Of a DNA stretch of 64,000 bases, positions 9,195 to 47,454 are shown one piece after another (position 1 is the stretch's first letter; each line of letters starts with the position of its first letter). The stretch is taken from IMG/VR virus record IMGVR_UViG_3300037141_000279, positions 32,296 to 96,295 of that record; one strand, 5' to 3'. The position numbers were made by a program, and so were the translations under genes. This DNA is from a virus. The notes below the pieces were generated by a model. The model was not told the DNA's origin, searched no databases, and worked only from the letters and a program-made list of their open reading frames with translations.

Positions 9195-9238
9195 GATACC
9201 CTCCACACTTATGGTATCATAAGTCTACTTTCCTGTCA

Positions 9239-21974: not shown

Positions 21975-22420
21975 TTATATTTCTCCAAATAATCGGCGCA
22001 GGCACGCAAACGCTCCACTGATTCTTTGGCGTTTCCAATGGTAAAATTGCACGGATGGCATAAAATTCCACGAATCTGCTTCGTGGTGTGGTTGTGGTCC
22101 ACACACCAAGGGTTAATCATTTTGCGTTTTTTAGGATAATACCCAACTTTAGAACTTCTGCATGATGCGCACTTACGCCCCTGCTTTTCAAACTTGATTG
22201 CTTTTTCTTCTGCTGTGATGCCGTAGGTTCTTTTTACTCTGGACCTGCTTGCAGTTAACGCGTGCTGTTTCTTATGACTTCGTCCCCACAATTTAGAACG
22301 AAGCCGACCGCAAGAAAGACAGTACGAATCAACTTTTCCTTTTCGTGTGATTTGACGAGGCTTCCGATGACATCTGCAACAGAGGCCTTTCGGCTTTACC
22401 CATGTCTTATTCTTCTGCAC
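21971..22420 (-). CDS. Endonuclease VII-family nuclease
   Basis: QGRKCASC...VDHNHTTKQIRGILCHPCN. Confidence 0.85.
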   Translation of the reverse strand: MQKNKTWVKPKGLCCRCHRKPRQITRKGKVDSYCLSCGRLRSKLWGRSHKKQHALTASRSRVKRTYGITAEEKAIKFEKQGRKCASCRSSKVGYYPKKRKMINPWCVDHNHTTKQIRGILCHPCNFTIGNAKESVERLRACADYLEKYK

Positions 22421-23033
22421 TATGCGCCCCCAAAAACTCCATAGCCCATTTTAGCACAACATCCTTCCTTTGCATAGACGCAGAAATAGTTTTTTTCGTC
22501 GCGGGCTCGCAGTGTTCAGCCGCTTTGATTGCATCTTCAATCGTCGCGCGGTCTTCAGGCGAGACGTAGAAAGAAAAATCTAAGTCCATCCAATCCCCCG
22601 ACTCTTCAGGCATTTTGAGGGTAGTAGCTATCAGTTTGTGAAGGTCTTTAACTGTGATTTTTGAGTCAAGAGCCGCCTCAAATAGCGTTTGAGGTAAAAC
22701 GATGGCATAGTCCTTGGCTTGCCTCAACTTCATCGCCTTTGATATACCCATAACCTCTAATTGGGCGAGAGTAAACGTGTCACTTAAATCCCTAACTGTC
22801 AAGAAGTACCGATGAAGGACTGCCGCTGATTTCTTCGACACCATCGCAACCTCCCGCAGATAGTCGCGAAAGGTATCATGGTTGATTCGCCAATATTGCA
22901 TCTCGGAAACCTCAAGCAGCAACCACCCCAAAGTTGCGTACCCACGCTCGCACTCATCTTCAGCTTCTGAGAGACCACACGCTTGGTTATTCACACGACC
23001 CAAGACGTACTCACCTGTTCTTGGTTCTTCCAT
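22407..23033 (-). CDS. Hypothetical protein
   Basis: 208 aa, coupled to both neighbours. Confidence 0.6.
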   Translation of the reverse strand: MEEPRTGEYVLGRVNNQACGLSEAEDECERGYATLGWLLLEVSEMQYWRINHDTFRDYLREVAMVSKKSAAVLHRYFLTVRDLSDTFTLAQLEVMGISKAMKLRQAKDYAIVLPQTLFEAALDSKITVKDLHKLIATTLKMPEESGDWMDLDFSFYVSPEDRATIEDAIKAAEHCEPATKKTISASMQRKDVVLKWAMEFLGAHSAEE

Positions 23034-23034
23034 A

Positions 23035-24690
23035 TTAGGCTCCACACTCCCCACCTTTTGAAAGTTCACAGGCGTTACCTGCCTCTTCAAATACCTCACC
23101 CACATGTTTCAACGCTTCTGACAGCGGAGCGGCGTTCAGCGGCTGCCCGTCCCGAGCCCCGTCTGGGTACACAGTGATGCCGCGCATCTTCGGAAGATAT
23201 TTCAAAAGCATCTTACCGAACGACTGCACGGTGTTTTCGTTGTTCAGCTTAGAACCCCAAGCGGGCAGATTTATTGTGCTGGATATTGAATGATCAACAT
23301 ATTGCTGAACCCACGCCTGAAATGCTGTGCGGCGTTCCACATCTTCAGCTAAGGAATAGGCATCTTCAATCAAGTCCAGGGACACACCAGAGTCTAGCAG
23401 TCGTTTCGCAGTCGGGTCAACCACAAACTGATATTGCCAATTTGACCCCTTCAGATATCGCCGTTTGTATGCGGCGCAGAAAATCGGTTCAATTCCAGTT
23501 GTGGTTTCCGCGATGATGCCGATAGTCCCGACAGGAGCAATCGCGCGGGTCTTGACGGGTTGAGACAAATCCCATTTGTCCGCGTACGGTTTCACCAGCA
23601 CGCCCGACTGCGCGTAGACCTGCAGATATTTCTCCAACTCTTCGTCTGCGCCGTACCTCTTACCGTGTACCAGCAACCATTCGTGAATCCCCATCAGGCC
23701 GAGACCCAGGCGGCGGTTCTTGCTGCGGACTTGGTCAACTTTCGGAAATGGGACATTTGAATAAACCGTACCTGCGAGCAGGAATGCCGCACCCAGTTCG
23801 GTCACTTCTTGCATTTCACCCAACGATTCAATACGGGCTAGATTGATGGAGCCCAAGTTACACACGTCGTTGTCATCCGCCGATGTGACTTCCGTGCATG
23901 CGTTGCGGAGTGTTTCCTTGGAGTTCTTGCCGCAGTCAATTGAAAACCCAGGCTCCCCTGTCTGCAGCATGTGTCGTAAGGCGGACCAATACACCATCTG
24001 AGCCAGAGAGTGTTTTGTGTGTTTCTCGTCGAAATATGCTTCAAAAAATTCATCATTGATTTGAACGCTGATGTTCGTCCCGTCCATCGTCGCTGGGAAG
24101 TTGTAATCTTTCGCTTTCAACGCGCGAACTTCAGGGCTCCAGTTTTTGAGTGTGATGAATTTCATGATGTCGGGATGATCCCAACGAAGCCCCGCCCAAA
24201 TAGCAGAGCGGCGGCTACCACCTTGCATGATGTATCGCCCTGCCTCGTTGACCATCTGCATCAGAGCGAGAGGTCCTGTGGAGAATCCACCTGTTTTCCG
24301 AATCAACCGACCTTCGGCGCGTACCTCACTATAGTCGCTGCCTATTCCACCGCCCGTCATCAAACTGAGTGTAGCCTTCTGCATCAGTTCAGACCAACCC
24401 TCGCGAGAGTCTTCCGCGCGGAACAGGAAGCAATTATTCACTTGGTGGTACAACCGACCTGTCGCCGCCAGATATCGTCCGCCAGGGATAAACTTTCGCC
24501 GAGCAATCAATTGCTGCAATCTCTCGGTGGTTCCTTTTCCAGCATGGACGGCGCGCATCACATGCTTCGGAACACGGTATGCAATGTTATGCCACTGTTC
24601 AGGCATTCCATTTTCTAACGTATGGCTGTACTTCTGCAGCATGATAGTCTCTGCAAACTTACTCAATTCAACCTTCGGTAGTTCAATCAT
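23035..24690 (-). CDS. nrdJ: Class II (B12-dependent) ribonucleotide reductase
   Basis: PGGR, NNCF, GGGIG, RRSA, NACTE, CNLGSINL, GLGLMG, IAPVGT, GIEP; no small-subunit gene in the window. Confidence 0.9.
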   Translation of the reverse strand: MIELPKVELSKFAETIMLQKYSHTLENGMPEQWHNIAYRVPKHVMRAVHAGKGTTERLQQLIARRKFIPGGRYLAATGRLYHQVNNCFLFRAEDSREGWSELMQKATLSLMTGGGIGSDYSEVRAEGRLIRKTGGFSTGPLALMQMVNEAGRYIMQGGSRRSAIWAGLRWDHPDIMKFITLKNWSPEVRALKAKDYNFPATMDGTNISVQINDEFFEAYFDEKHTKHSLAQMVYWSALRHMLQTGEPGFSIDCGKNSKETLRNACTEVTSADDNDVCNLGSINLARIESLGEMQEVTELGAAFLLAGTVYSNVPFPKVDQVRSKNRRLGLGLMGIHEWLLVHGKRYGADEELEKYLQVYAQSGVLVKPYADKWDLSQPVKTRAIAPVGTIGIIAETTTGIEPIFCAAYKRRYLKGSNWQYQFVVDPTAKRLLDSGVSLDLIEDAYSLAEDVERRTAFQAWVQQYVDHSISSTINLPAWGSKLNNENTVQSFGKMLLKYLPKMRGITVYPDGARDGQPLNAAPLSEALKHVGEVFEEAGNACELSKGGECGA

Positions 24691-24968
24691 CAGTTCACCT
24701 TTGGCCGATAGTTGCTCGGCGCGATACCTGGATTCTTTTTCTTGGTCGGCTTCTCGTCGTCTTTCTCGTCGTCAATGGAAGTGAAGATGGTGCCGACGGT
24801 CTGCCGTTTCGATTGCGCGGCACCTGAGGATGCAGGACGCACACAGGGCCAGCAGGCAGATTGCCACTCCCCCTTCGCGTCTTTCTTGGCGTACCCTGCT
24901 TCTGCTTTTCCGCAGAAGCCACACTTGCCGCGGGCTTCAGGGAACGTGTAGTCTGTCGCCTTCACCAT
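24690..24968 (-). CDS. Small Zn-finger protein
   Basis: CGFC...CWPC. Confidence 0.55.
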   Translation of the reverse strand: MVKATDYTFPEARGKCGFCGKAEAGYAKKDAKGEWQSACWPCVRPASSGAAQSKRQTVGTIFTSIDDEKDDEKPTKKKNPGIAPSNYRPKVN

Positions 24969-25303
24969 AAAGTTGCCTCCTGTCGTCTCCAGTTCAGGTA
25001 TCCGGCGATGATGTCGCCGTGACAGAATTCAGGACGACACCAACAACCGAGAATCTCATTATCGTCGATTGTGATGTCAGCCATGTGGCGCAATTTCCAC
25101 TGCTCAGGATCATACCAGTACGCGGCGAATTTTGCAATCACTTCCGCGCGCGTGCCGTCTTTCCCGATGTGGAATGGGTTGTGAAATGGTGACGTCGGGA
25201 TGCCGCCATACTCGCGCCCGATGTAAAGGGTGCACGTTAGTTTCGTGTTCAGGGTGATCTTCACCACTTTAACGGGCACTGGATGCTCGCCTTCTGCGGG
25301 CAA
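24962..25303 (-). CDS. DUF4326 family protein
   Basis: YIGR...NPF.IG.DG.R..VI..F...LGCWC.P..CHGD. Confidence 0.85.
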   Translation of the reverse strand: MPAEGEHPVPVKVVKITLNTKLTCTLYIGREYGGIPTSPFHNPFHIGKDGTRAEVIAKFAAYWYDPEQWKLRHMADITIDDNEILGCWCRPEFCHGDIIAGYLNWRRQEATLW

Positions 25304-25769
25304 GAATAACCGCGCTCGCTCCGCTGCCGCCGTTCGCGAAAAACGTCCGCATGGCTGTTTTCAATTCTCGTTCTGTCAACCCATCGGCGAATTCGGTGAG
25401 TGCCGCTTTGATTTCATCGCCAGGATAAAGATTCAGCAGTTCGGCGACCGAGGTTGCCGACGGCAAAGTTCCCGTCAACTCATAAGTGAGCGAAGCCAAC
25501 TCACCAACGACTGGGTTCTTCAAATCAAGCGGCGCGGGAATTTCACCAGCTTTGCCGAGCCGCGAATCCACCACTTTTAGGTATTCTGAGATAGGGTATC
25601 GAGGCGTCTCAGCCAGCGCGGTGCACCATTCATCGAAATCCCGCGCGACGGCGGCAGCCCCATACGCTTCAGCAAGGAGCCCCAAACGGCTTTTCAGTTC
25701 AGGATACACCCCTCGGGTGTTCTTCAGCACCCGCGCGGCGATCCTGGGTAGTTCTTTCATCAGGTTCAT
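25269..25769 (-). CDS. Hypothetical protein
   Basis: 166 aa; SD GAGG. Confidence 0.6.
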   Translation of the reverse strand: MNLMKELPRIAARVLKNTRGVYPELKSRLGLLAEAYGAAAVARDFDEWCTALAETPRYPISEYLKVVDSRLGKAGEIPAPLDLKNPVVGELASLTYELTGTLPSATSVAELLNLYPGDEIKAALTEFADGLTERELKTAMRTFFANGGSGASAVILARRRRASSAR

Positions 25770-25790
25770 TGTTTGATCCTCTCGCAGTCA

Positions 25791-25987
25791 AATACATTTG
25801 GACATTTGGACAAAGACGGTAACCCCTTGATAATAAGAGAAATGAACGTGTCCAGAAGTCTATCCAGAAGTGTTTGGGACTTCTGGTTACGTGACCAAAT
25901 GTCCAAATGTCCAGAAGTGGTTAAAAGACTTTTGGTCATAGATATATATAATAGAATCATATACATACAAACTTGTCCAAATGTATT
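25791..25987. repeat. Putative replication origin (iteron-like repeats)
   Basis: Multiple TGTCCAAAT / TCCAGAAGT repeats in both orientations, a 14-bp flanking inverted repeat and an AT-rich tract, next to the primase gene. Confidence 0.65.
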
Positions 25988-26000
25988 GTAACTTTCGCAG

Positions 26001-27905
26001 CTAGGAGACATCATCAACACCCTCATAGTGAAGTAAAGGCGAACGCTCCCCATCCATTTCTACCTTCTCTGCCCCAACTTCGTGCATCTCAGGGAGAGAC
26101 CACATCACGCAAGACACAGTTCGATCTTTGTTGTTCGGCGGTTTTGTGCTTGTGGCAGGAACAATAATTGATTGAATCTCCGATTTGATGGGGATTGCAT
26201 CCGCCGCGCGATTCAACGTGCTCCGACTGATGCGTGCTAACGCCTCCGCGCGCGCATAAACCACCTTACTCTCTTTCGGGCCAGATTGAAGTTCCTTCTC
26301 CAGCCACTCAATGGCTTTTTGTTGGGCGATGTTGGGTCGCCCCATCTGTTTTTGTTCAGGCTCAGGTTCTTCCGTGGCTTGGACAGGCACCAAACGCCCG
26401 CCCTCGAACTGAAGAGTGAATTTCTCGGCAGGAGCGTTGCGTGGAAGTATGGTTAAGACCCTCTGGGGGGCTGTGCCGTCGTCATCCTCGGAGAATTCGA
26501 GTACACAGACCGTTTCACAGTTCCGACCCCATGCTTCGCTTCCTGACAGCTTATCCCGCTTGGCGGCGTAATCCTCTCCCCGCTTGGTTTTGGGTGCGCC
26601 GACACTACACACCAAAGCGATGTGGAAGTGAGCGGCGGTCTCTTGTAGTTGGCGCATGAACGGCGACACGACAGACTTCTTGTTGGCATCATCAAGAAGC
26701 ATGTCCAGCCCCTCGATGAAGATGACGTTTGGGGTTGGGTTCATCTTTTCAATTTCATTGATAATCCCCTGCACAGCGTCCGTCCCGAAAGCAAGCGGAA
26801 GCGGAGTCGTAGGGATATCTGTCGGAAGGAGGTTCAACCTTCGCATTGTGCGTGTAAACGCGTTCCTGCCTCGGTCGTAAGCCAGGACTTGAAACGTGTA
26901 TTTATGGGTACTGTGTTCGAGCACAGGATATCCTTGCTTTTGTTTATGCAGCATTTCAAAAATCCAGGTTGTCTTTCCTGTGCCGCTTGCCCCGCCGATC
27001 AGGCTGATGTCACCGAGTGGAAACCACCCATCCTCTTGTCCATTCGCAGGCGCAACCACATAATCACCATCAGGGTCAGGCAAAGCAGGAGTGTGAAATT
27101 CAATAGACTCAGAGACGAACACAGGTTTGCCCGTGCGTTCTGTGTCTATCGCCGCTTTGATGGTACGCTGGCGATAATCGGCACGATCCCGCCATTTATC
27201 CCGCTGCCCAAGAGCCGAGAACCCGAAAAACTTCTCCATCTTCGCAGGATCGTTTTGCGTGAGTCGTGCCAATTCACGCATCAGGGCGTAGTCGGCACTG
27301 GAATCATCCCCCTCGAATGTGGACGTATCTCCCAACCACAGCAGCTTGAATTTTTTATCTTTATTTTTGGTGATCAGCATGTACGGGAGGGTCATATCGG
27401 CGATGGGGTTCACATCATGGCCGATGACTTTTTCCCCTGTCATTGTGAAATATCTGCCGCCCTCTCGACCGTGGTAGATTTCAATGCCGACGTGACCTTG
27501 AGATAGTTTGCGCCCGCCCTCGGGGAGAACGTCACACTCCACAAAAGCGTGCAGACCTCGCCCACTGGGAGAAGTTTCGGTGTACGGACTGCCGAGAAGG
27601 TTCAAAATCGATAAGGCGTATGGGTCGATGATGCCTTTGTTCGTGATGGCGCTGTCAAAATCAATTCCCACAAGGTTGGTGCCGCCGAGTTCAAATCCAA
27701 CGCCGTTGTAATCCCCACCTTTTAGGACATCGGCAGCATCCATCGCCTGTTCAAAAGTAGTCCAGGTGTTGGGGTCGTCCGCCTTCGCCATGGCTCCTGT
27801 CTTTGCATTGAATGGGACCTTGGTTTCCTTGCCATCTCGAACAAGTGCTTTCCAGCACACCCAGTTCGGGCGTTGTTTGAGCACATCAGGAATATCATTC
27901 AGCAC
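26001..27905 (-). CDS. Primase-polymerase (NrS-1-like) fused to AAA helicase
   Basis: NWVCWK...KVP, DFD, ETSPSGRGLH, RYFTMTG, DDSSAD; Walker A GASGTGKT. Confidence 0.85.
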   Translation of the reverse strand: MLNDIPDVLKQRPNWVCWKALVRDGKETKVPFNAKTGAMAKADDPNTWTTFEQAMDAADVLKGGDYNGVGFELGGTNLVGIDFDSAITNKGIIDPYALSILNLLGSPYTETSPSGRGLHAFVECDVLPEGGRKLSQGHVGIEIYHGREGGRYFTMTGEKVIGHDVNPIADMTLPYMLITKNKDKKFKLLWLGDTSTFEGDDSSADYALMRELARLTQNDPAKMEKFFGFSALGQRDKWRDRADYRQRTIKAAIDTERTGKPVFVSESIEFHTPALPDPDGDYVVAPANGQEDGWFPLGDISLIGGASGTGKTTWIFEMLHKQKQGYPVLEHSTHKYTFQVLAYDRGRNAFTRTMRRLNLLPTDIPTTPLPLAFGTDAVQGIINEIEKMNPTPNVIFIEGLDMLLDDANKKSVVSPFMRQLQETAAHFHIALVCSVGAPKTKRGEDYAAKRDKLSGSEAWGRNCETVCVLEFSEDDDGTAPQRVLTILPRNAPAEKFTLQFEGGRLVPVQATEEPEPEQKQMGRPNIAQQKAIEWLEKELQSGPKESKVVYARAEALARISRSTLNRAADAIPIKSEIQSIIVPATSTKPPNNKDRTVSCVMWSLPEMHEVGAEKVEMDGERSPLLHYEGVDDVS

Positions 27906-27913
27906 GAGAGCCT

Positions 27914-28291
27914 CTATTCAAAAAGAATGGTGTTGATTCCTAAATCTGCGCACGCTCGCAAGAAACCTTTTTGTTCTGGTTCGACGATAGACGCTAGTGC
28001 GTAGGTCTCACTCTCGCTTAGTTGGCGCATCGTATGGGTGTTGGCGGGCATAGCGTTAATACTGAGTGCACCTTTACCCCCATTGCACTCTCTACAGGCT
28101 GTGATGTAGTTGCTGAGAGAGTCAGGACCACCGTTCGCCTGCGAAACCATGTGGTCACACTCCAGCGACACCTCTGGCGGTTTTCTGCCGCAGTATTGAC
28201 AGGTGAAATTATCCCGCTGAAGGGTCAGAAAGCGGTCTCGTGGTCTGATACACATAAATGATATTCTACTCCGATTCCTTGCCAAAGTCAA
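27914..28291 (-). CDS. HNH endonuclease
   Basis: RDNFTCQYCG...ECDH...NGG...NYITACRECNGGK. Confidence 0.9.
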   Translation of the reverse strand: MTLARNRSRISFMCIRPRDRFLTLQRDNFTCQYCGRKPPEVSLECDHMVSQANGGPDSLSNYITACRECNGGKGALSINAMPANTHTMRQLSESETYALASIVEPEQKGFLRACADLGINTILFE

Positions 28292-29441
28292 ATTCGTCCA
28301 GTTGTTTTCTCTCTAACAGCATGTCCCGCAGTTCAGGCTTGTTCGCGCAGATGCCTCGCATGCTGCAATTTTCACATTTATTGTTGGGCCAGCGCACGCC
28401 TGATTGCATGGGCCAGAATTCCTTTTCATTCGCCGCCGCGATGTTGATCACGTCGCGCTTGATGGACCGCCCGATATCCTCGGCGCTGTCGGGAGTGATG
28501 ACGGCGCTCTTGAATTGCACGCGCTGCTTGGTGAGTGTGTTCGCCAGCACATGTTTGCCGTGAAGTGAGATGTACTCCGTTTTTGCCGCCTCCACCGCTT
28601 TACTTTTGCCGACGAACAACGTGTTCATTTCCTCTTCGACCTTGGGGTCTGCTGTGACCCAGATGCCGAAATCATCTTTCGCCATGACAGTCACAGCAGT
28701 TCCAGGCAGAAGCCCTGCGTACGGCTCCAGCATTGTCGCGGCATCTCCCTTGGAAATCTCGCGACCCATTTTGCGGAACCACAGGAACGCGACGTTCGGG
28801 TAAGACTTCACCCAGGAGTAGCTGCGAAGCTGCGGGTCCATCACAGTCAACTCGGGTACATCCTTGCCCGACGTTTTGATGTCGATAATGAGCGGTTGAC
28901 CGCCAGGGACGACAGAACTTGAAGTTGGTTTCGTTTCAGCAATCAAGTCGATATACGACGTGAATTCAATCCCTGCCAACTTTGTGCCTGGGAAAACTTC
29001 AAAGTCGGTTTGGACTTGAAAATCCTGCGGGTTGTTCACGACGTACGGAAATGTCGGGTAGAGAATGGCGTATAGCTTGATCAGTTCCTGCCCTGTGCGG
29101 TTCAAGCTATCCCAGTCACGGTCGGTTTTGGAATATTGGTAGCGAATGATTTTCGGCTGACCCTCTGCGGGCTCCACATCCTTGTGCTCGGCCCACAGGC
29201 GGACGAATTCGGCGACAGCGCCCGCGACATCAAGACGGCGCTGGTGATAGAACGTGATGCCCTTCTCCAGCGCGATGCCGAAATGTGTGGACGACCGCTG
29301 CACTTTCTCGGCCCAACCCTGCACGCGCTCAAGGTAATATTTCCTCGCACAATAATTGAAAGAATCGGACCCGCTGTAGGAATGGCGGGTGACGAAAAAT
29401 CCCTTACTGTTGATGTAAAGATGTGGCTTCATTGTGCTCAT
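28266..29441 (-). CDS. PD-(D/E)XK exonuclease (RecB/Cas4-like)
   Basis: SYS...CARKYY; IDL...IIDIKTS; QLRSY; C-terminal CxxC...C. Confidence 0.85.
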   Translation of the reverse strand: MSTMKPHLYINSKGFFVTRHSYSGSDSFNYCARKYYLERVQGWAEKVQRSSTHFGIALEKGITFYHQRRLDVAGAVAEFVRLWAEHKDVEPAEGQPKIIRYQYSKTDRDWDSLNRTGQELIKLYAILYPTFPYVVNNPQDFQVQTDFEVFPGTKLAGIEFTSYIDLIAETKPTSSSVVPGGQPLIIDIKTSGKDVPELTVMDPQLRSYSWVKSYPNVAFLWFRKMGREISKGDAATMLEPYAGLLPGTAVTVMAKDDFGIWVTADPKVEEEMNTLFVGKSKAVEAAKTEYISLHGKHVLANTLTKQRVQFKSAVITPDSAEDIGRSIKRDVINIAAANEKEFWPMQSGVRWPNNKCENCSMRGICANKPELRDMLLERKQLDEFDFGKESE

Positions 29442-30022
29442 TTTACCCCTCGCTGAACCAAAGAATCAATGCCTCGTTGAATGAATGTGGAAAAGTCACA
29501 CAATGCTTGATAGTATACCATCAAAACCTGCTGTATTTCATTTTGGTCCCAGGTAGGGTCCTCTTTTGCCGCCAACAGTAACTCCATCTTCCCTTGCACA
29601 AATTTGAGCCTCTCTTTCGCCATGCTCAAGCATCGGGTGTCGCCCACATTCAGCGGGGTCAGGGAGATTTCCAAAGATGGAGCTTCGGTATTTTCATACC
29701 CCTCTGGGTTGAACGGGGTGTCTGGATTGTCGGAACTTGATGGAGTTGGGGTGATAATCCCTACCGACTCTTTGTATCTATCTATCCAGTAATAAGCGGT
29801 TTTGGGAGGAATCCCCACTTTATGCCACATTGCATAAAGTCCAGGCTCTCCTCGACGGTTCCCTTGTTTCTTCAATGTTTGCTGCCAATCAAAATTCACG
29901 CGGCCAAAAGCCAGCCCATGTTTGTCCGTGGATTGATATGCCAGCCATGCCGCTTGGATTTGCTGTTCGGCGAGAGTTTGGTCAGTATCCTGCATGTTTG
30001 GAATTTCGGCAAGGTGTGTCAA
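29438..30022 (-). CDS. Hypothetical protein
   Basis: ORF track; start uncertain. Confidence 0.55.
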   Translation of the reverse strand: MTHLAEIPNMQDTDQTLAEQQIQAAWLAYQSTDKHGLAFGRVNFDWQQTLKKQGNRRGEPGLYAMWHKVGIPPKTAYYWIDRYKESVGIITPTPSSSDNPDTPFNPEGYENTEAPSLEISLTPLNVGDTRCLSMAKERLKFVQGKMELLLAAKEDPTWDQNEIQQVLMVYYQALCDFSTFIQRGIDSLVQRGVK

Positions 30023-30896
30023 AGTAAGGTAGCCCCCTCTCTAAGTCTTTCACGTAGGCGATCTTGCCTGATTCCTTTTTCATGACGGCAGACCCATCTG
30101 CCAAGGCAGCGTGAAGTTTTTGAGCGATACCGATTCGCTCCGTAGGGATTTTCGGCACCCAAACCCATCGGGTTCCGTGGCGGTGTTTCTCTTCCCGAAG
30201 GATTTTTTTGTCTTCGGGGACCTGATTCCAAAAATCAGGCTCGGAATGGTAGTTGTTGTATTGGTCTAAATTGCGAATGGGATACCGCCGCCCGTTCCAC
30301 CAAATCGCTTTTGTTTTCAGAACCTCTTTGACTTTATGAAACCCAGTGGCTCGATATATCAAACCTGTGTGTTTTCCGTCAGGATGGTCGGCACGTACTT
30401 CGTTCGGGTCGGCGTAGCTGAGGACCCGCTGGATTCCCTCTTGTCGGAGAAGTCGAAACATCACACTAAGCACTCGACTCTCGCTGTTTTTAGGGGCGGC
30501 GTCAAGAAGCACTAATCTCCGCAATTCAACAAGGCGCAGATTCCCATTACCGTTGTATTTACGTAGAGTTTGAGTCTGACCTGGAATTCCAAAAATCGCC
30601 GCCCCAAGCATTCGACCTGTCTGTTTATTAACCACCCGATAAGTATGCGTCGGAGTCATACCTTTGGCTGAGTGAGTGTAATGGTGCGCCACAACAAAAG
30701 CCGCAGCTTCTCGGGCAGAGCACGGCTCGACACAGAATTCTGGAAGTTTTTGTTGACTACCTCCGCTATGGTGTTTGTGAAAATGTTTTTTCCGTTGGTT
30801 GTTGGACGGAAACACAAGACTGCAAACCTCACAAATATGGAGCGGAGGAGGCGGAATCGAACCGCCGTCCACGATAGGACTCGTGTGCTCTGCCAT
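29982..30896 (-). CDS. mom: Mom-family GNAT DNA adenine-modification enzyme with N-terminal C2H2-like zinc finger
   Basis: FVVAHHY, GAAIFG, ELRRLV, PKNSESR, VLSYAD, HTGLIYRATGF; CEVC...HFHKHH. Confidence 0.85.
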   Translation of the reverse strand: MAEHTSPIVDGGSIPPPPLHICEVCSLVFPSNNQRKKHFHKHHSGGSQQKLPEFCVEPCSAREAAAFVVAHHYTHSAKGMTPTHTYRVVNKQTGRMLGAAIFGIPGQTQTLRKYNGNGNLRLVELRRLVLLDAAPKNSESRVLSVMFRLLRQEGIQRVLSYADPNEVRADHPDGKHTGLIYRATGFHKVKEVLKTKAIWWNGRRYPIRNLDQYNNYHSEPDFWNQVPEDKKILREEKHRHGTRWVWVPKIPTERIGIAQKLHAALADGSAVMKKESGKIAYVKDLERGLPYFDTPCRNSKHAGY

Positions 30897-30910
30897 TAAA
30901 CTACCTCCGC
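30838..30910 (-). ncRNA. tRNA-Gly-like cloverleaf overlapping the mom RBS and first codons
   Basis: GCGGAGG TA GTTT AATGGCA GAGC A CACGA GTCCTA TCGTG GAC GGCGG TTCGATT CCGCC T CCTCCGC T CCA. Confidence 0.8.
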
Positions 30911-30917
30911 ACTACCT

Positions 30918-30946
30918 ACTTTATCAAACCGATGCAGGGATGTCAA
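30918..30946 (-). promoter_or_regulatory. Sigma70 promoter starting at the tRNA-like element
   Basis: TTGACA-17-TAAAGT, 7 nt upstream of G1. Confidence 0.7.
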
Positions 30947-31586
30947 CTGAAATCGACATCCCTTCCCGAAAATCTTCAACGAAGCGTTCGGGGACTCGGG
31001 CAAAAATGGAATCAAGGTCCTGAACCTTCCCGAGTTTGAATTTTAACTCGTCGAGCAAGAAATCCAGAACGAATTCCCGAGCCTGCATGCTGACTTTGTC
31101 AGAATTATCATGGTAAACCGTGCTTACCACCTGGGTTGCGTCGAGGAGTTGGTTCCCCATCCCGTGGTTATCCGCTACGACGGAGAAGGATCGTCCTTGG
31201 GTGGCGTCGGTGCTCACGGTCAAGGTCTCGCCGACCTCATAGTCCACGTGGTGTGCGTCGAGCAGGTTTTTGGTATCATCGAATGATTTGGGTGGGGTGG
31301 AGACATGGAACTTTGCTTCATGTGACGCCAGCCATCCCGCGATGCGGTATGCGATAGGGCTTTGGCGAATCACATTAACGCTGGATTGATACTTCTCTTC
31401 TCGGGTGAGTTTCGGGGCGGGAGCAGGGGATAGCGCCAGTAGGTTCCACGCACCCTCAAAGCCGTCTTTGAGTAAGCGTAATCGAACCCAAAAAGGTTCC
31501 GCAGGAAGGGTGTCTATAACTTGAGCCTTGCCTTCTCCTCTTACTTTAACCCAGGCTCCAACTTTCAAATCATCTTTGCTCATCAT
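30924..31586 (-). CDS. Hypothetical protein
   Basis: 220 aa; SD AAGGAG; TTGACG-17-TAGCAT upstream. Confidence 0.65.
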   Translation of the reverse strand: MMSKDDLKVGAWVKVRGEGKAQVIDTLPAEPFWVRLRLLKDGFEGAWNLLALSPAPAPKLTREEKYQSSVNVIRQSPIAYRIAGWLASHEAKFHVSTPPKSFDDTKNLLDAHHVDYEVGETLTVSTDATQGRSFSVVADNHGMGNQLLDATQVVSTVYHDNSDKVSMQAREFVLDFLLDELKFKLGKVQDLDSIFARVPERFVEDFREGMSISVDIPASV

Positions 31587-31613
31587 GTCAGTCTCCTTGA
31601 CTACACCCCAATG

Positions 31614-32153
31614 CTACCAGATAGGCTTCGGACCGTCAATAGTACTTTCGTACTGGTCCATCCACTCTTGGAAAATGGCGGAACTGGTGATAGGGTGAAA
31701 TTGAGAGGGGTCTCCGAGATACACCCGATCTCGTTTATTTTTGATTTTGGTTCCGTTTTTCCAGCATCGATCTGTTCGCAATTCTCGACCAGTCATCCAC
31801 CCTCGAATCCGCATTTCAGGGAAATGCTCGGCGGACACAGAAACGAAGCGGCAATCAGGGCCTTTCCAAATATCGTCCTCTCGATACATCACCCCAAAAA
31901 AGTCTTTCGACACAGTCTTTACTTCGGCGATTGGCGAATCTAGCGAGTAGATGGGGTGCCATATTAGTGGTAAACTTGCCTCCATCTTAAACGCTAGTTC
32001 TCCCCATTGCCCGAGCAAACGGTCCTCGAATTTACCCTCCTCGGGGTGACCGTGACTTTCTTGTTGGCCGACAGACTCGGCAGTAGCCATATCGGTCTCC
32101 GCAAATATCTTCGCAGTCCACTGGACCATGGAATGAAGGATGTGAGGTATCAT
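31614..32153 (-). CDS. Hypothetical protein, possibly PD-(D/E)XK-like
   Basis: GQWGELAF...D...EVKT. Confidence 0.5.
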   Translation of the reverse strand: MIPHILHSMVQWTAKIFAETDMATAESVGQQESHGHPEEGKFEDRLLGQWGELAFKMEASLPLIWHPIYSLDSPIAEVKTVSKDFFGVMYREDDIWKGPDCRFVSVSAEHFPEMRIRGWMTGRELRTDRCWKNGTKIKNKRDRVYLGDPSQFHPITSSAIFQEWMDQYESTIDGPKPIW

Positions 32154-33730
32154 ACAAAAAGTTTATGCTGTTCCTGCAGTCGATCCACGTCAGTGGCGTG
32201 TTCCCTTAATTTGTCGAGAATTTCGTCCGTGAGATACTTCCGTAGATACGGCGACGGTGTCCCTGCGAACGAGATGCGCAGCATGTCAATGGCGCGCGAG
32301 ATCGCCACAAAATAAATGCGTTTCTCCTCGGTCGGGTCGCCCTTCGTGTGCGGGAACCCTTTGGCGTTCGCGCCGATCACGTAGACGTTGCGCCATTCAC
32401 CTCCTTTTGATTGATGTACAGTCGAAATTGAGACGCCCTTCGGGTCGTTGCGGCGGTGCATCATCTTGTTCGCATACACACAGAAATCTTTCGCCATACG
32501 AAAATCTTTGCCGATCAGGCGAATCACTTTCAAATTCTCCAGAGCGTCGTTGTCTCGTTCTGTCCGATCCTCCACCGCGTACTTGGATTCCAGGTGCGGC
32601 AGTGTGAGATTGAACGCGACTTCCGTTGACATCGTCGGATAATCTTTCAGCGCCTCAACTGCCTTGCGAATCTCGTTCTGCTTCCAGAAGCCTGATTTCC
32701 CCATCAGGTGGTATCGGATGCTGTATCGATTGCACAGACGCTCCAGCAGGCCGACCATTCTATTCGTGCGGGCAAGAATAATTGAATTGAGCGGGTCTTT
32801 CTGCGCCAGCGCCAGGGCGGACTCAGCCTCAGCGTCGTCAGACCAATACATCTTCAGCGATATCGGCGCGCCCTTGACGTTCCGCGCAGCCTTCATGCGA
32901 TCAAGCAGTTCCTTCGGCGTGTCTTCAGGCGCGTTTTCGCGCACGAAGTCGACGATGTTCTGCGTGCTGCGATAGTTCAGCCCAAGGTAAAACTTCTTGC
33001 CTGCTGGAAACCACTGTTCGAAGTTGGTGATGTTGTCAGGCTTCGCTCCACGGAATCCGTAGATCGCTTGGTTCGGGTCTCCGACCACGGTGATGTTGCC
33101 GTGCTTCTCGGTCATCAACTGCATCATGCGCCATTGCAGATCGTCGGTGTCCTGGGCCTCGTCGACGATCATGTATTTCGGCTGCCACCGCGCGCGACAC
33201 TGCGGATTCTTTTCAAGCATGTCGACGGAGTCGCGGAGCATCGAGTCGAAATCCATCCATCCTTCCGCCGCTCGGGTGTTCTCATACATCACATATGCGC
33301 TGGCGTAACCATATTCATATTCGCCGCTCTCCATCGCTTCGGTCGGACTGACATTCGCGCGCCGCATCTTCGCGATGAAGTGGTCGAGTTCTTTGTAATC
33401 CAGTCCCCACTTCTTGCAGAGGCGACACATCAGACGATATCGGAGTTCGGGTTCGACAGGTTTACGTTCAACTTCCGAGCAGATCAAATATCCCAGGCTG
33501 TGGAATGTGGACACCACGCCTTTTACTCCTGCCCGCTTTTCCAATGCGCCTGCCATTTCTTTGGAGAACGTGACGGCTCGAATTTCGGAGGGGCTGACGC
33601 CAGATTCAATCAACGTGTTGATAAACGCCACCATGGTTGCGGTTTTGCCGCTTCCTGGTCCTGCGACGACAGATCGGGGTCCGTCAGGGCTGTCAATGAT
33701 GCCCTGCTGATCAACGTTCAGTTCGGTCAC
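32150..33730 (-). CDS. UvrD/Rep-family SF1 helicase
   Basis: AGPGSGKT, TFHS, VDEAQD, VGDPNQAIYGFRGA, NYRS, STVHQSKGGEW. Confidence 0.95.
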   Translation of the reverse strand: MTELNVDQQGIIDSPDGPRSVVAGPGSGKTATMVAFINTLIESGVSPSEIRAVTFSKEMAGALEKRAGVKGVVSTFHSLGYLICSEVERKPVEPELRYRLMCRLCKKWGLDYKELDHFIAKMRRANVSPTEAMESGEYEYGYASAYVMYENTRAAEGWMDFDSMLRDSVDMLEKNPQCRARWQPKYMIVDEAQDTDDLQWRMMQLMTEKHGNITVVGDPNQAIYGFRGAKPDNITNFEQWFPAGKKFYLGLNYRSTQNIVDFVRENAPEDTPKELLDRMKAARNVKGAPISLKMYWSDDAEAESALALAQKDPLNSIILARTNRMVGLLERLCNRYSIRYHLMGKSGFWKQNEIRKAVEALKDYPTMSTEVAFNLTLPHLESKYAVEDRTERDNDALENLKVIRLIGKDFRMAKDFCVYANKMMHRRNDPKGVSISTVHQSKGGEWRNVYVIGANAKGFPHTKGDPTEEKRIYFVAISRAIDMLRISFAGTPSPYLRKYLTDEILDKLREHATDVDRLQEQHKLFV

Positions 33731-33737
33731 GGAAGCC

Positions 33738-33905
33738 TCACTTGGAAAAGTAGTCGTGGATCGTGTGAAAGAAGTGCTCTGGATCAAGTTTATGCGCCAC
33801 CATCCGATGGATGATGTGCCACCCGATCCAGAGCACCAGGAAGGATAACTCTACACCAAATCCTTGCCAGAGTCCAGCCCAAACGAGATTGAGAATAGTT
33901 TTCAT
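33738..33905 (-). CDS. Small membrane protein
   Basis: Hydrophobic 55 aa. Confidence 0.5.
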   Translation of the reverse strand: MKTILNLVWAGLWQGFGVELSFLVLWIGWHIIHRMVAHKLDPEHFFHTIHDYFSK

Positions 33906-33919
33906 AAAATTGGTCCGAG

Positions 33920-34062
33920 AGTTTGGCATTCTTACTGGGTTACTCGGATCGCAAAGGGCGACATGGTCGGCTGCTTACGCGCACCGTCCTATGCTCGGTA
34001 ACAAGCGAGCCGTATCCTTTGCTACACCAGATCAGTCAGTGATCAACCTGACAGCGCCAACT
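33920..34062 (-). ncRNA. Putative structured RNA downstream of ssb
   Basis: Nested stems TTGGC/GCCAA, CTGG/CCAG, GCAAAGG/CCTTTGC and GCTCG/CGAGC. Confidence 0.35.
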
Positions 34063-34066
34063 TCGT

Positions 34067-34585
34067 TTAGAATCCGATTTCGTCGTCAACTTCTTGCGGT
34101 GCAGGACGTGCTGCAGGACGAGCCGCAGGTGCCGCCTGCCGTTGCGCAGGACGAGCCTGTTGTGCTGGGCGTCCTGGGTTTGAGCGTCCTGGCAGAGCAG
34201 GTCGGGTTTGTTGGGTTGGGCGCGCCGCGGGTTGTTCGGCGACGGGTTCGGTGATCAACCCCTTGATGTCCGTGACGTTGATTTCGGTGGTGTACTTCTT
34301 CACACCCGTCTGCTTGTCTTCCCACGAGCGGGTCTGCAGCTTGCCTTCGATGTAGACCATGTCGCCCTTGTGGATGTACGGCTGAATGAAAGCCTCAACC
34401 GAATTGCCCCACGCGACGATGTTGTGCCACTCGGTTTTTTTCTGTTTCTCGCCCTGAGCGTCTTTGTAGGATTCGTCCGTTGCGAGGCTAAAATTCGCAA
34501 CAGCCTTGCCGCTCTGGGTATACTTGATCTCTGGGTCTTTGCCCAGGCGTCCGATCAGAATTACCTTGTTCACTGAATTTGCCAC
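34067..34585 (-). CDS. ssb: Single-stranded DNA-binding protein
   Basis: VNKVILIGRLGKDPE...TEWH...EGKLQTRSW; acidic tail DDEIGF. Confidence 0.97.
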   Translation of the reverse strand: MANSVNKVILIGRLGKDPEIKYTQSGKAVANFSLATDESYKDAQGEKQKKTEWHNIVAWGNSVEAFIQPYIHKGDMVYIEGKLQTRSWEDKQTGVKKYTTEINVTDIKGLITEPVAEQPAARPTQQTRPALPGRSNPGRPAQQARPAQRQAAPAARPAARPAPQEVDDEIGF

Positions 34586-34630
34586 TATGTCACCTTTTCC
34601 TTTTTTGAGTTTACCCCGAAGGGTCGTAGC

Positions 34631-35617
34631 TTACTGCTTCTCTTCAAGCCCGTTGAATTTGTTGACCAACTTCCCGAGATTGACGAGTCCATTCTCCAGT
34701 GCCAGCGCCTGATCGACGCGAGCAAAGAAATCGTCCCATTGAATTCTGGAAATCTTCGTGGCGTCGCTTGCCTTGGTGATGCTGAGCAAGAACACCAACA
34801 GTTTGCGATTGACGGGCAGACCCTTGCTGGCCTTCAGTTTGCCGTTCGCCGTGAGGTCATCGCCCAGGTTTTTGAACTTCGTGCGATATGCCGCGAGTTC
34901 TTCTTCGGTCGGCAGTTCGTCGTCGGGACCCTCATAAGCGTCGCCGTGTTCGGGAGCCACATCGGGTCCCTGGTTCTGCTCTTCCACGGGAACGGATGGT
35001 GGTGGGGGTGCAAGCGGTGCGTCAATAGACTCCGCAGGGGGTCCTGCAGGGCGGTCGGCTGGCTTCTGAGCCCTCGGCGCAGGCAACGGATTCGGAGCCG
35101 CGTGTTGATCCTCTCGGAATTCAGGCTCTTGCGGCTGGTATCGGCTGGACGTACTGAAATCGGTCGCATTGTCCACCGATTGGTCGGCTTCAGGGTCCAT
35201 CGCGTATGGGTCAGCAGCATCAGGCAAGAGAGTACCATTGCGTAGTGCGTTCTTGGTCGCGCCTGTCTGCGCCTTGAAAATCCCCTTGTCGCCCGAGTCT
35301 GCGCCGTCGCCGAGCCCGCTGATGTTCAAGGTCTCGTCGGAGTCCGCATCCATCAAACGGATGAATGCCTTCACCGTTGCGGTGTGCATCGTGCCGCCGT
35401 TGTTGGTCTTGATGTCGTACGTCCCCAACAGATCGTAATTGGTTTCGGCGTAAATGCCGAATTTGGCGAACGCGTTGCGAATAGATCGCAGCACGTCAGC
35501 AGCGCGCACGAAATCATACTTCTGCTTTTCGTTCCGGCCAGCTTTTTCAACGTGGTCGATTTCGTTGTAAACTTGAATCAGTTTCTGCCTCAAATTCAAC
35601 TTCGATGTGTCGGTCAT
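34631..35617 (-). CDS. ERF-family single-strand annealing protein
   Basis: SD AAGGAG before MTDTSK; KAGRN...YDFV...GDGADSGDKGIFKAQTGA; frame stays open upstream to 35875. Confidence 0.8.
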   Translation of the reverse strand: MTDTSKLNLRQKLIQVYNEIDHVEKAGRNEKQKYDFVRAADVLRSIRNAFAKFGIYAETNYDLLGTYDIKTNNGGTMHTATVKAFIRLMDADSDETLNISGLGDGADSGDKGIFKAQTGATKNALRNGTLLPDAADPYAMDPEADQSVDNATDFSTSSRYQPQEPEFREDQHAAPNPLPAPRAQKPADRPAGPPAESIDAPLAPPPPSVPVEEQNQGPDVAPEHGDAYEGPDDELPTEEELAAYRTKFKNLGDDLTANGKLKASKGLPVNRKLLVFLLSITKASDATKISRIQWDDFFARVDQALALENGLVNLGKLVNKFNGLEEKQ

Positions 35618-35910
35618 GGTGCTCCTTTTATTGGGCTGCTTTTGGCCTGTAATCTCTTCTTGAATTTTTTGCGTGATCCAGTCCCGATTATCCAGTAGCA
35701 AATTCACAGGGACATTCAAATGCATCTTTGTCGGACGATGGTAGAAGTGAATCTGCGCAGGCTCAAGGTCGCAGGTGTTGAATGGCATTTGTAAACCATC
35801 CCACTCACATCCTGCTTCAACCACTGCGATTCGAGCCATGTCGAGAAATGCGTCGTTGCTACTCACGTTGTCCATAGTACCAAAGTACCATTGATTTTGT
35901 CAAGCTAATT

Positions 35911-38211: not shown

Positions 38212-38219
38212 GAATCCCC

Positions 38220-38633
38220 TTATGCCATCGCAATTAGAAGGTCTCGTACTTTTTCCCAGTTTTCAAAGTGCGTGACCTGGGGCAGATGATGAAAGATGTT
38301 CTCGTACTCGGCTCCGACCACGAAGATGGGAATCTTGCGGGTCAGCCCTATGCCGATGGCGATACCAAACTCCACATGGCGGCCCGCGCGGATCACGGTC
38401 TTTGTGGGCTCGTTGAAGAATACCAGAATCTGTGCGTCGCGGACATCTTTTACGTCACGAATGGCATACTCGCGAAGCGTCTCGACAGGGACTTCAGCCA
38501 TTTGAACCGTTGGTGCGAACGTCTCGTTCAGCCAACTGGATGTGATGTGCACGCCTGTATCGCACAGAGAACCTGCACACTTCTTGATGTAATCCTTCTG
38601 GCTATATGGTGCCGCTAGATATACTTTCAGCAT
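38220..38633 (-). CDS. Nucleoside 2-deoxyribosyltransferase-like protein
   Basis: VYLAAP...DVKDV...GRHVEFGIA. Confidence 0.75.
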   Translation of the reverse strand: MLKVYLAAPYSQKDYIKKCAGSLCDTGVHITSSWLNETFAPTVQMAEVPVETLREYAIRDVKDVRDAQILVFFNEPTKTVIRAGRHVEFGIAIGIGLTRKIPIFVVGAEYENIFHHLPQVTHFENWEKVRDLLIAMA

Positions 38634-38645
38634 GCATCCTCCGTG

Positions 38646-40644: not shown

Positions 40645-40665
40645 ATTGCCTCCGAACGAATTACG

Positions 40666-47380: not shown

Positions 47381-47454
47381 TGGAGCGAGACCTGGGGTTT
47401 GAACCCAGGCTTTCAGTTTGGAAGACTGACGTGCAGCCGCTACACTAGTCCCGC
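47381..47454 (-). tRNA. tRNA-Gly(TCC)
   Basis: GCGGGAC/GTCTCGC T CCA; TCAGT-CTTCCAA-ACTGA. Confidence 0.92.

Follow-up and report, generated by a model that had tools for sequence, protein, structure and literature searches.

The window analysed here, a 64,000-nucleotide stretch of a 96-kb peat virus (positions 32,296 to 96,295 of IMG/VR record IMGVR_UViG_3300037141_000279), contains a Mom-family DNA modification gene whose first codons lie inside a deformed tRNA-Gly-like RNA of 73 nt, and a deformed RNA of this type is found with Mom genes at more than 50 distinct loci of viral or metagenomic origin. Because the same deformed RNA recurs at so many Mom loci with strong covariation, the element is neither a chance structure nor an assembly error. 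We think it probable that the RNA derives from tRNA-Gly, can no longer decode and has been maintained by selection in partnership with Mom, most likely to carry glycine for that enzyme alone. A pseudo-tRNA inside mom homologues is already known from Dehalococcoides (McMurdie 2011, PMC3146451), where no function was proposed for it.

The initial annotation of this DNA had described a promoter, a 73-nt cloverleaf with a 6-nt anticodon loop and an extra T, the glycine identity set and an encoded CCA, and all of these are present on the minus strand (Table 1), as are the Shine-Dalgarno sequence and ATG that it had placed within the fold. The two promoter hexamers, TTGACA (30946-30941) and TAAAGT (30923-30918), are separated by 17 nt with TG preceding the -10 element, and the promoter sits within the 3' end of the upstream ORF, whose TGA stop codon is at 30926-30924. 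Its end is separated by 7 nt from G1 (30910) of the tRNA-like RNA, which puts the expected transcription start at the first base of that RNA or next to it; comparable promoters that end 6-9 nt before G1 are found at 10 of 34 distinct Mom-linked elements, versus 0.3% of control positions. The fold reaches from 14 nt upstream of the mom ORF to nt +59, and a TAG codon in the mom frame at 30914-30912, six codons upstream of the ATG, makes a start of the ORF further upstream impossible. In relatives with the same fused arrangement GGAG(G) is mostly 7-8 nt ahead of the D-loop start. The DNA of this locus is identical in contigs of four peat metagenome runs; run X1 may be the source sample, the contigs of X6 cover the whole stretch, and those of X4 and X5 cover only pieces of it.

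Table 1. Features of the mom locus and of the canonical tRNA-Gly gene in the window (window coordinates)
Feature	Position	Strand	Remarks
Sigma-70-type promoter, TTGACA-17-TAAAGT	30918..30946	(-)	10/12 consensus matches
73-nt tRNA-Gly-like RNA	30838..30910	(-)	G1-C72, C2-G71, G3-C70, U73, encoded CCA
Shine-Dalgarno sequence GGAGG	30904..30908	(-)	Bases 3-7 of the fold, in the 5' acceptor strand; ATG 7 nt downstream
mom start codon ATG	30894..30896	(-)	In D loop AAUGGCA; bases 15-17 of the fold
6-nt anticodon loop GUCCUA	30875..30880	(-)	Retains the CC read by bacterial GlyRS
Extra base between T stem and acceptor stem	30849..30849	(-)	3' side of T stem; hallmark of the family
mom ORF, 304 aa	29982..30896	(-)	Residues 1-20 encoded by the tRNA-like RNA; 22-42, C2H2-type motif; 54-236, Mom (GNAT) domain
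Insertion C-x2-C-x12-H-x3-H (C22, C25, H38, H42)	30768..30833	(-)	Putative, from motif spacing
Canonical tRNA-Gly(UCC) of the same phage	47381..47454	(-)	7-nt loop, unbulged T stem, Rfam tRNA 59.7 bits; G000 79679-79749; internal contrast

The acceptor stem of the tRNA-like RNA (GCGGAGG/CCTCCGC) consists of seven perfect pairs, the D arm is GTTT-AATGGCA-GAGC, the anticodon arm is CACGA-GTCCTA-TCGTG, the variable region has 3 nt, and the T arm, GGCGG-TTCGATT-CCGCC, is followed by the one extra T and then by U73 and CCA. Energy minimisation gives the cloverleaf as the most stable fold (-29.4 kcal/mol, z = -2.3). Bacterial tRNA-Gly identity is set by G1-C72, C2-G71, G3-C70, U73, C35 and C36, and this set is complete in the window element. 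The look-alike shares with canonical tRNAs a covariation-backed cloverleaf with the D-loop GG and the T-loop UUCRA, but lacks their 7-nt anticodon loop and regular 5-bp T stem, and its 6-nt anticodon loop is too short for normal decoding. ARAGORN reports it as "tRNA-???" at 30838-30910(-) with a two-base "anticodon" that corresponds to the 6-nt loop, and with the Rfam tRNA model (RF00005) it scores 26.6 bits, under the 29-bit cut-off, whereas the four canonical tRNAs of the same phage score 42-68 bits; with a covariance model of the family (R1) it scores 68.8 bits. The only Rfam cmscan report for the region, a partial tmRNA match of 19 bits, was treated as clan cross-talk. The canonical tRNA-Gly gene that the initial annotation had also listed is real, and since the phage thus already encodes a tRNA-Gly(UCC), the look-alike is not needed for decoding. 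The loop of the window element, GUCCUA, differs from the usual loop of the family, NUUCCA.

A covariance model of the element finds matches adjoining Mom genes in dozens of independent loci. In an alignment fitted to that model, paired cells amount to 96.5%, versus 73.5% in shuffles and 45-52% with the partners slid, and, in the same fitted alignment, two-sided changes occur in 21 of 21 pairs and the observed values are reached by none of 500 shuffles; in an unfitted MAFFT alignment G1-C72, C2-G71 and G3-C70 are invariant (39/39), and the acceptor, D and T stems covary. One alignment has the extra T-stem base in 53 of 53 Mom-linked elements and in none of four canonical tRNAs, with U73 in all 53, the loop CC in every element and a standard 7-nt anticodon loop in none; loci L049-L124 have the extra base and UCCA by construction, since the pattern with which they were found required both. 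Among the elements from loci fetched by protein similarity, the extra base and U73 are present in 18 of 18 and an encoded CCA in 16. In most relatives the extra base is a bulged A that follows the third T-stem pair. The first bases 3' of the CCA are 79-82% A/T, compared with 54% in the gene body, which fits a processing trailer. Distant members in L012, L020 and L048 have weaker or odd T loops, and decayed copies of the element are seen in L023 and L001.

The association with Mom is close from either direction of search. A search for the odd T arm followed by UCCA, written as a DNA pattern, matched 76 viral contigs: in 48 a Mom gene comes directly after the match, and in about 58 a Mom or DruA-like gene is no more than about 2.5 kb away. 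Conversely, of the loci retrieved through similarity to Mom proteins, about half have the RNA, always on the Mom strand. The RNA model matched none of 11 cultured-phage Mom loci (hosts Bacillus, Geobacillus, Vibrio, Aeromonas (two), Synechococcus (two), Enterococcus (two), Exiguobacterium and Acinetobacter); in S-SSM7 only ordinary tRNAs came up. A blastn search of a phage collection with a 76-nt family member gave no match, and a Mom profile search of genome contigs found no relative. As 0 of 11 cultured-phage loci have the element and Mu Mom works with ordinary host tRNA-Gly, it is not required family-wide.

In 22 of 23 distinct loci an ATG or GTG in the D loop is in frame with, and open into, the Mom core without a stop, and this holds over 10 different distances; by this reading of the sequences the element is both RNA and coding. 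The same conservation of frame suggests that mom is translated from the acceptor-strand Shine-Dalgarno sequence and the D-loop ATG. A true start downstream of the CCA, which the initial annotation had named as the observation that would overturn it, is contradicted by these loci, and the homologues keep both the fold and the GGSIP-type N-termini whose conservation it had proposed as a check. Where the D-loop start has been lost, there is instead an in-frame ATG 6-22 nt upstream of G1 or a new Shine-Dalgarno sequence and start past the CCA. We rejected the idea that loss of a loop base and gain of a T-stem base merely preserve the frame, since insertions or deletions anywhere would suffice and both features persist in untranslated RNAs.

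The position of the RNA relative to mom varies among lineages. It is fused in frame with mom in the window, L022, L024 and others; it lies upstream of a mom gene with its own Shine-Dalgarno sequence and start after the CCA in L002, L030 and L056; it is 0.5-1.3 kb upstream of mom in L023 and L035; and it is downstream of mom in L012, L013, L018, L020, L021, L048, L082-type loci and L083. Elements that are apart from the mom start keep the same acceptor end and the extra T-stem base. Because an RNA that follows mom or precedes it by up to 1.3 kb cannot occlude the mom start, hiding of the ribosome binding site cannot be the general role of the RNA; the feedback switch that the initial annotation had put forward as its main function is therefore not upheld, and such occlusion would be a lineage-specific extra. 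The other possibility raised there, a dedicated non-decoding glycine carrier that would be excised from the messenger, fits the family-wide evidence better.

The assignment of the protein to the Mom family was borne out by both sequence and structure comparisons. It matches Pfam PF25680 over residues 54-236 with 79.1 bits (cut-off 27.1 bits; E = 4.8e-22), and its AlphaFold model (mean pLDDT 80, core above 85) has Mu Mom as its top Foldseek matches (8bv8_A, E = 6.4e-10; 8bv8_B, E = 3e-9), ahead of other GNATs. A phmmer search of the PDB with the protein returned only a His-tag artefact, and 8bv8 was reached by profile search. In the profile alignment to 8bv8, ELRR, NSES and YAD of the window protein are opposite ELNR, NSE[A] and FAD, and its R127, S140 and D163 are opposite Mu R111, S124 and D149 (the Mu numbering assumes an inferred 9-residue offset of the crystal chain), so that family, fold and the catalytic Arg/Ser/Asp motifs are common to the two proteins. 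R127, E139 and D163 are invariant in the homologue alignment, and H72 and Y73 (Mu counterparts H58/Y59) are nearly so. None of the 23 homologues in the alignment (24 other rows, with the window's own gene call among them) has the C-x2-C-x12-H-x3-H insertion. The insertion may be a zinc finger, a reading that rests on the spacing and on two sub-threshold Pfam matches (zf-met, E = 0.005; zf-C2H2_4, E = 0.006), as AlphaFold gives residues 1-50 low confidence and no usable model. The automatic gene call for the contig (P0001) begins at a GTG, codon 28. In most relatives the CCA runs directly into the conserved Mom N-terminal block LQDLWV and leaves no room for another start.

Mu Mom uses Gly-tRNA-Gly, does not accept Gly-tRNA-Ala and depends on the terminal adenosine (Silva et al. 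2026, PMC13219725), which confirms the donor substrate that the initial annotation had named. Mu Mom and two mined homologues are the only enzymes shown to carry out glycyl-tRNA-dependent N6-adenine modification of double-stranded DNA, and the terms "tRNA-like", "upstream", "leader" and "mimic" are all absent from that paper (PMC13219725). Mu itself has no tRNA of its own, and any isoacceptor of host tRNA-Gly will serve it, whereas the window phage encodes a look-alike.

We favor the following course of events. Transcription would start at the first base of the look-alike, as the promoter position implies, and the RNA would fold into the L-shaped tRNA-like body, a fold that covariation shows; it would then be cut or trimmed after the encoded CCA, within the A/U-rich trailer. 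Host GlyRS would charge it by means of G1-C72, C2-G71, G3-C70, U73 and the loop CC, and the look-alike would pass its glycine to Mom, which would use it to modify adenine at N6 in the phage DNA, as homology with Mu Mom suggests. The short anticodon loop and the extra T-stem base would keep the RNA off the ribosome and probably off EF-Tu, the extra base lying in the T-stem region that EF-Tu contacts, and glycine for DNA modification would then be supplied without competition from protein synthesis. In the lineage of the window the RNA gene has been absorbed into the mom reading frame. Since the acceptor strand contains the Shine-Dalgarno sequence and the D loop the ATG, RNA folding and translation initiation should be mutually exclusive on any one molecule, and Mom synthesis may be confined to the short interval before the 3' acceptor strand is made, the fate of each transcript being split between messenger and carrier. 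One point against a carrier is that its excision from a fused transcript would remove that transcript's Shine-Dalgarno sequence and start codon, and for this reason the carrier model works only if the two uses follow one another or if there are two separate pools of transcripts. It is possible, and we suggest it only tentatively, that each transcript has two consecutive lives: the messenger might be translated for no more than about a second, until the 3' acceptor strand emerges and locks the Shine-Dalgarno sequence and ATG, Mom might load in cis on the tRNA-like 5' end of its own transcript, and a cut behind the CCA might then turn that end into a private carrier excluded from the ribosome, gene, throttle and co-substrate thus being the same 73 nt.

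Three other explanations of the RNA were weighed against a private glycine carrier. It might act only in cis, staying in the mRNA as a mimic that is never charged, on which Mom, GlyRS or another tRNA-binding protein locks the Shine-Dalgarno sequence and ATG to give feedback on a toxic enzyme. In Mu, mom translation is held back by an inhibitory mRNA structure that the Com protein opens. Such a mimic would be well placed in the window and about 22 other distinct loci, where the acceptor strand is the Shine-Dalgarno sequence and the start is in the D loop; the promoter puts the fold at the extreme 5' end of the transcript, and Mom recognises acceptor-end features of tRNA-Gly. We nevertheless consider it unlikely, as in other lineages RNAs with the same acceptor end and extra T-stem base follow mom or are hundreds of bases away from the mom start, and mom has its own signals past the CCA in L002, L030 and L056; moreover, it is not obvious why a pure operator should conserve an encoded CCA or the core of the L shape (D-loop GG and T-loop UUCRA), and it need not disable decoding. 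An RNA that works in trans but carries no glycine, either as a structural subunit or activator of Mom or as a sponge for a host factor (a tRNA-targeting defence nuclease, a deacylase or EF-Tu), would agree with the tight linkage to Mom; the conserved and unusual T-stem bulge could be a mark for protein recognition, and the odd T loops of L012, L020 and L048 may make poor synthetase substrates. Its most strictly kept parts, however, are the bacterial glycine identity set and the CCA, as a chargeable donor needs, and the reaction of Mom depends on an aminoacyl ester at the terminal adenosine, so we regard this explanation as quite unlikely.

The least credible explanation, to which we give hardly any weight, is a decaying tRNA pseudogene or integration-site remnant that gene callers read through, with the true mom start downstream. 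The sub-threshold Rfam tRNA score, the automatic call at codon 28 and the decayed copies in L023 and L001 would be expected of such a remnant, but the covariation shows selection on the fold, both deformities are conserved rather than random, the frame is kept in 22 of the 23 loci, a start at codon 28 would remove both cysteines of the putative zinc finger, and most relatives have no room for a start between the CCA and the LQDLWV block. A remnant of a tRNA gene used as an integration site was rejected in view of the conservation of the full-length fold and its two deformities across unrelated contigs.

The arrangement in the window has a described counterpart. In the ssrA genomic islands of Dehalococcoides a conserved tRNA-Gly-like "pseudo-tRNA" of about 76 bp lies within the first 150 bp of a mom homologue (McMurdie 2011, PMC3146451); it was treated there as an annotation curiosity and primer target, in a report that predates knowledge of the tRNA dependence of Mom by years. 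From that description the arrangement is the same as that of the window element, but it belongs to an integrative island in a bacterial genome, whereas the present one is in a 96-kb peat virus and has a promoter at +1, a Shine-Dalgarno sequence in the acceptor strand and a zinc-finger-like insertion. The best functional analogy for the proposed carrier comes from Staphylococcus aureus and S. epidermidis, whose extra, non-proteogenic copies of tRNA-Gly(UCC) receive glycine from the ordinary GlyRS, interact weakly with EF-Tu and serve as donors to the GNAT-fold aminoacyl-transferases FemXAB/FmhB, which act outside the ribosome (PMC7826273). These copies are free-standing host tRNA genes outside the ORF of the enzyme, with no bulged T stem reported and with a peptidoglycan precursor as acceptor, whereas the window RNA is written into the mom ORF, has an extra T-stem base and would have DNA as its proposed acceptor.

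Other tRNA mimics in messengers likewise overlap or adjoin translation signals. In the E. coli thrS operator the mimicry is confined to the anticodon arm, and the operator is untranslated; the tmRNA ORF lies between the halves of its tRNA-like domain, and the tRNA-like structures of plant viruses are at the 3' end; tmRNA and the viral structures are charged by a synthetase. The window element, like the thrS operator, overlaps both a Shine-Dalgarno sequence and a start codon, but unlike the window element none of these mimics is read in frame as the N-terminus of an enzyme that uses the matching aminoacyl-tRNA.

The use of charged tRNA-Gly by Mom on DNA was shown only in 2023-2026, in work that assumed scavenging of host tRNA. 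If the carrier reading is correct, many phages would bring their own glycine donor reserved for DNA modification, and the idea of a non-proteogenic tRNA, so far tied to cell-wall synthesis, would extend to DNA hypermodification. The element accounts for a "pseudo-tRNA" annotation that has been a puzzle for 15 years, and it is a rare and clean case of one sequence under selection for an RNA fold and for protein coding at once. It also carries a warning for annotation: these Mom genes come out of gene callers too short, and their RNA is overlooked or wrongly labelled by tRNA finders.

On the minus strand of the window a 73-nt cloverleaf overlaps the 5' end of the mom gene and is the minimum-free-energy fold of its sequence (-29.4 kcal/mol, z = -2.3). 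ARAGORN labels it 'tRNA-???' with a two-base anticodon, which corresponds to a 6-nt anticodon loop, and in the Rfam tRNA model it scores 26.6 bits, below the 29-bit threshold. The 96-kb virus also encodes four ordinary tRNAs, which reach 42-68 bits, and the canonical tRNA-Gly(UCC) listed in the initial annotation is borne out with them in that range. The putative mom start is a D-loop ATG 7 nt 3' of the acceptor-strand GGAGG, with an in-frame TAG six codons 5' of it and an open reading frame of 304 codons beyond. This DNA is found repeatedly in peat metagenomes, and the stretch is without differences in contigs from four runs (X6 covers it whole, X4 and X5 only piecewise, and X1 may come from the source sample), so the odd loop and extra base are unlikely to be assembly errors. 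We note that the X4 and X5 contigs, from two independent peat assemblies, end within the tRNA-like RNA (window 30835-30880), which is expected if many related community copies have k-mers in common with it.

Features of the mom region in the window, and the tandem RNA genes of locus L082
Feature	Coordinates	Strand	Details
Promoter TTGACA-17-TAAAGT	30946-30918	minus	TG before -10; sequence reading
73-nt cloverleaf	30910-30838	minus	starts 7 nt after promoter end
Acceptor stem of cloverleaf			GCGGAGG/CCTCCGC
D arm of cloverleaf			normal, GG present
Anticodon arm of cloverleaf			CACGA-GUCCUA-UCGUG
Variable region of cloverleaf			3 nt
T arm of cloverleaf			GGCGG-UUCGAUU-CCGCC
3' end of cloverleaf			one extra U, then U73 + CCA
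C2H2-type zinc-finger motif (C22, C25, H38, H42)	30768-30833	minus	residues 22-42, exact C-x2-C-x12-H-x3-H spacing
194-aa ORF 3' of mom	29438-30022	minus	overlaps mom by 41 nt, other frame
Two tandem 75-nt tRNA-Gly-like genes	L082:1953-2106	minus	oriented 4052-4206; same pair in L088, L103, L118

The 6-nt loop and extra T had marked this as not a normal tRNA; both are real, and they are family-wide rather than particular to the window. The 3' strand of the T stem contains one additional base in all 53 Mom-linked elements (44 A, 5 C, 4 G) and in none of the four ordinary tRNAs aligned with them; U73 is likewise present in 53 of 53 and an encoded CCA in 51. Of their anticodon loops 32 are 6 nt long and 20 are shorter, and every one contains CC, most commonly as NUUCCA. 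The DNA pattern used to find 76 viral contigs (unusual T arm, acceptor 3' strand and UCCA) is biased for the extra base and UCCA, which it required; in the bias-free set of 18 protein-fetched elements the extra base and U73 occur in 18/18 and CCA in 16/18. This conservation makes the 6-nt loop and extra T of the window a family hallmark rather than local damage.

Covariation supports the fold on both a fitted and an unfitted alignment. In the former (57 matches), which leans to the model, 96.5% of cells pair, against 73.5% in shuffles and 45-52% with slid partners; compensatory changes occur at 21 of 21 pairs, and the observed values were reached in none of 500 shuffles, a test inflated by relatedness. 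In the unfitted MAFFT alignment of 39 sequences, G1-C72, C2-G71 and G3-C70 are invariant, and acceptor pairs 4-7, the D stem and the T stem covary. The effect size and slid-partner controls clearly indicate selection on RNA structure.

The element is widely conserved. The conservation check proposed in the initial annotation came out positive, and homologues keep both fold and N-terminus: at 42-68% identity they begin M-x-E...GGSIPxPSLQDLWV, where GGSIP is the codon reading of the T arm (GGSNP in one homologue is GGUUCGAAUCC), and loci retrieved by Mom protein similarity alone have the same fold in the DNA directly 5' of mom. A Mom gene directly follows in 48 of the 76 pattern contigs, and further checks found a Mom or DruA-like gene within ~2.5 kb in about 58; a covariance model constructed with 39 members matched about half of 48 protein-fetched loci, every match on the Mom strand. 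Counts throughout are of related sequences and not independent events. Among 11 Mom loci sampled from cultured phages, none has the element. One viral contig, L124, has two tandem modules (4013-4085 and 4638-4709); each pairs one Mom paralogue with a tRNA-like RNA fused to it, and the two RNAs (73 nt and 72 nt) differ in their loops. In L097 the ORF overlapping the RNA (8936-9727) is closer to DruA of Druantia (E = 1e-9) than to Mom (0.003), so Mom-like enzymes that are classified under the name of a defence system may be served by the RNA as well.

The same sequence is apparently also coding. Of 23 distinct Mom-linked elements with a D-loop ATG or GTG, 22 read from it into the Mom core in frame and without a stop, where chance would give one in three in frame, over ten different distances of 81 to 195 nt. 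Often a stop lies just 5' and no other start precedes the core (L024, L089, L022, L061, L078, L112), and in the L059 group, with its 5-nt loop, the T arm is in another frame and the D-loop ATG is still in frame. In most relatives the CCA codons continue directly into the conserved LQDLWV block, which with the frame data argues that, in this lineage, mom starts inside the fold and not downstream of the CCA. Elements without a D-loop ATG have an in-frame ATG 6-22 nt 5' of G1 (L090, L096, L102 and others) or, in L002, L030, L056 and L025, a mom gene whose SD and start codon are separate and lie 3' of the CCA. L023 has an intact RNA at 914-986, 530 nt upstream of mom, whose N-terminus (MEQQPEIF..., ~1440-1512) reads like a translated second copy that has decayed and lost its acceptor stem.

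Residues 1-20 of the window protein are the translation of the tRNA-like RNA, and residues 54-236 match Pfam Mom (E = 4.8e-22). Its AlphaFold model has a confident core and is closest to Mu Mom (8bv8, E = 6e-10); in a family profile ELRR, NSES and YAD lie opposite the Mu motifs with R111, S124 and D149, which are required for activity (PMC13219725). Between the tRNA-coded peptide and the core lies a zinc-finger motif with two sub-threshold C2H2 Pfam matches, an insertion found in none of 23 aligned homologues; the public gene call (P0001) takes the GTG at codon 28 as its start, which would remove both cysteines of the motif. In Mu, mom translation is controlled by a separate zinc-finger protein, Com, and a connection with the insertion seen here would be wholly speculative. 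The 194-aa ORF has no Pfam match, and in four homologues of 406-454 aa (P0005, P0007, P0014, P0015) its sequence is joined to the Mom C-terminus, which reflects gene fusion or fission, or possibly a frameshift site. The mom gene belongs to a block of replication and recombination genes that all lie on one strand (22000-40700, minus), together with ribonucleotide reductase, NrS-1-like primase-polymerase/helicase, HNH nuclease, PD-(D/E)XK nuclease, UvrD helicase, ERF and RecA genes.

This arrangement is anatomically known, since McMurdie et al. (2011) described a conserved 76-bp tRNA-Gly-like locus, called 'pseudo-tRNA' by annotation pipelines, in the first 150 bp of a Mom homologue in Dehalococcoides ssrA islands and a marine fosmid (PMC3146451); as in the window, the fold lies within the 5' end of the gene. 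They proposed no function, the terms 'tRNA-like', 'upstream', 'leader' and 'mimic' are all absent from the Mom papers, and the functional reading, family-wide hallmarks and dual-coding evidence are not in print.

In the window the SD is sequestered by a G+C-rich acceptor stem of 7 bp and the start codon is also within the fold, so folding and translation initiation must, as read from sequence, exclude each other. Mu mom is toxic and translationally controlled, and a plausible kinetic throttle, in which translation of mom would stop once the 3' acceptor strand has been transcribed, fits this. The proposed feedback switch would have Mom or GlyRS bind the tRNA-Gly-like leader. Hiding of the RBS and start holds in this window, but probably not as the reason the RNA exists. 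Elsewhere the RNA lies immediately downstream of mom (L012, L013, L018, L020, L021, L048, L083), 0.5-1.3 kb upstream (L023, L035), upstream of a mom with a separate RBS, or as a tandem pair ~430 nt downstream, just before a small-terminase-like ORF; in that pair the T stem is bulged but the loops are 7 nt long (CUUCCCG, with C at position 37). At all these positions the RNA has GCG...CGC-U ends together with the extra T-stem base and cannot hide the mom start codon, so the function that these RNAs share must presumably act in trans, and we regard the throttle as a lineage-specific by-product of fusion.

Ten of 34 distinct elements have a strong promoter that ends 6-9 nt before G1 (0.3% of control positions), and the first bases after the CCA are 79-82% A/T against 54% in the gene body, which hints at release of a free RNA; we infer all steps after folding. 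Conservation is strictest for the glycine identity set and CCA, decoding is by all appearances disabled, the extra base is within the T-stem region that EF-Tu contacts, and a normal tRNA-Gly(UCC) is present elsewhere in the phage. The glycine donor of Mu Mom is Gly-tRNA-Gly; Gly-tRNA-Ala is rejected, and the terminal adenosine is required (PMC13219725). Together these point to a glycine donor for Mom that can be charged but is kept off the ribosome, with a published parallel in the non-proteogenic tRNA-Gly of staphylococci, weak EF-Tu binders that supply Fem transferases (PMC7826273).
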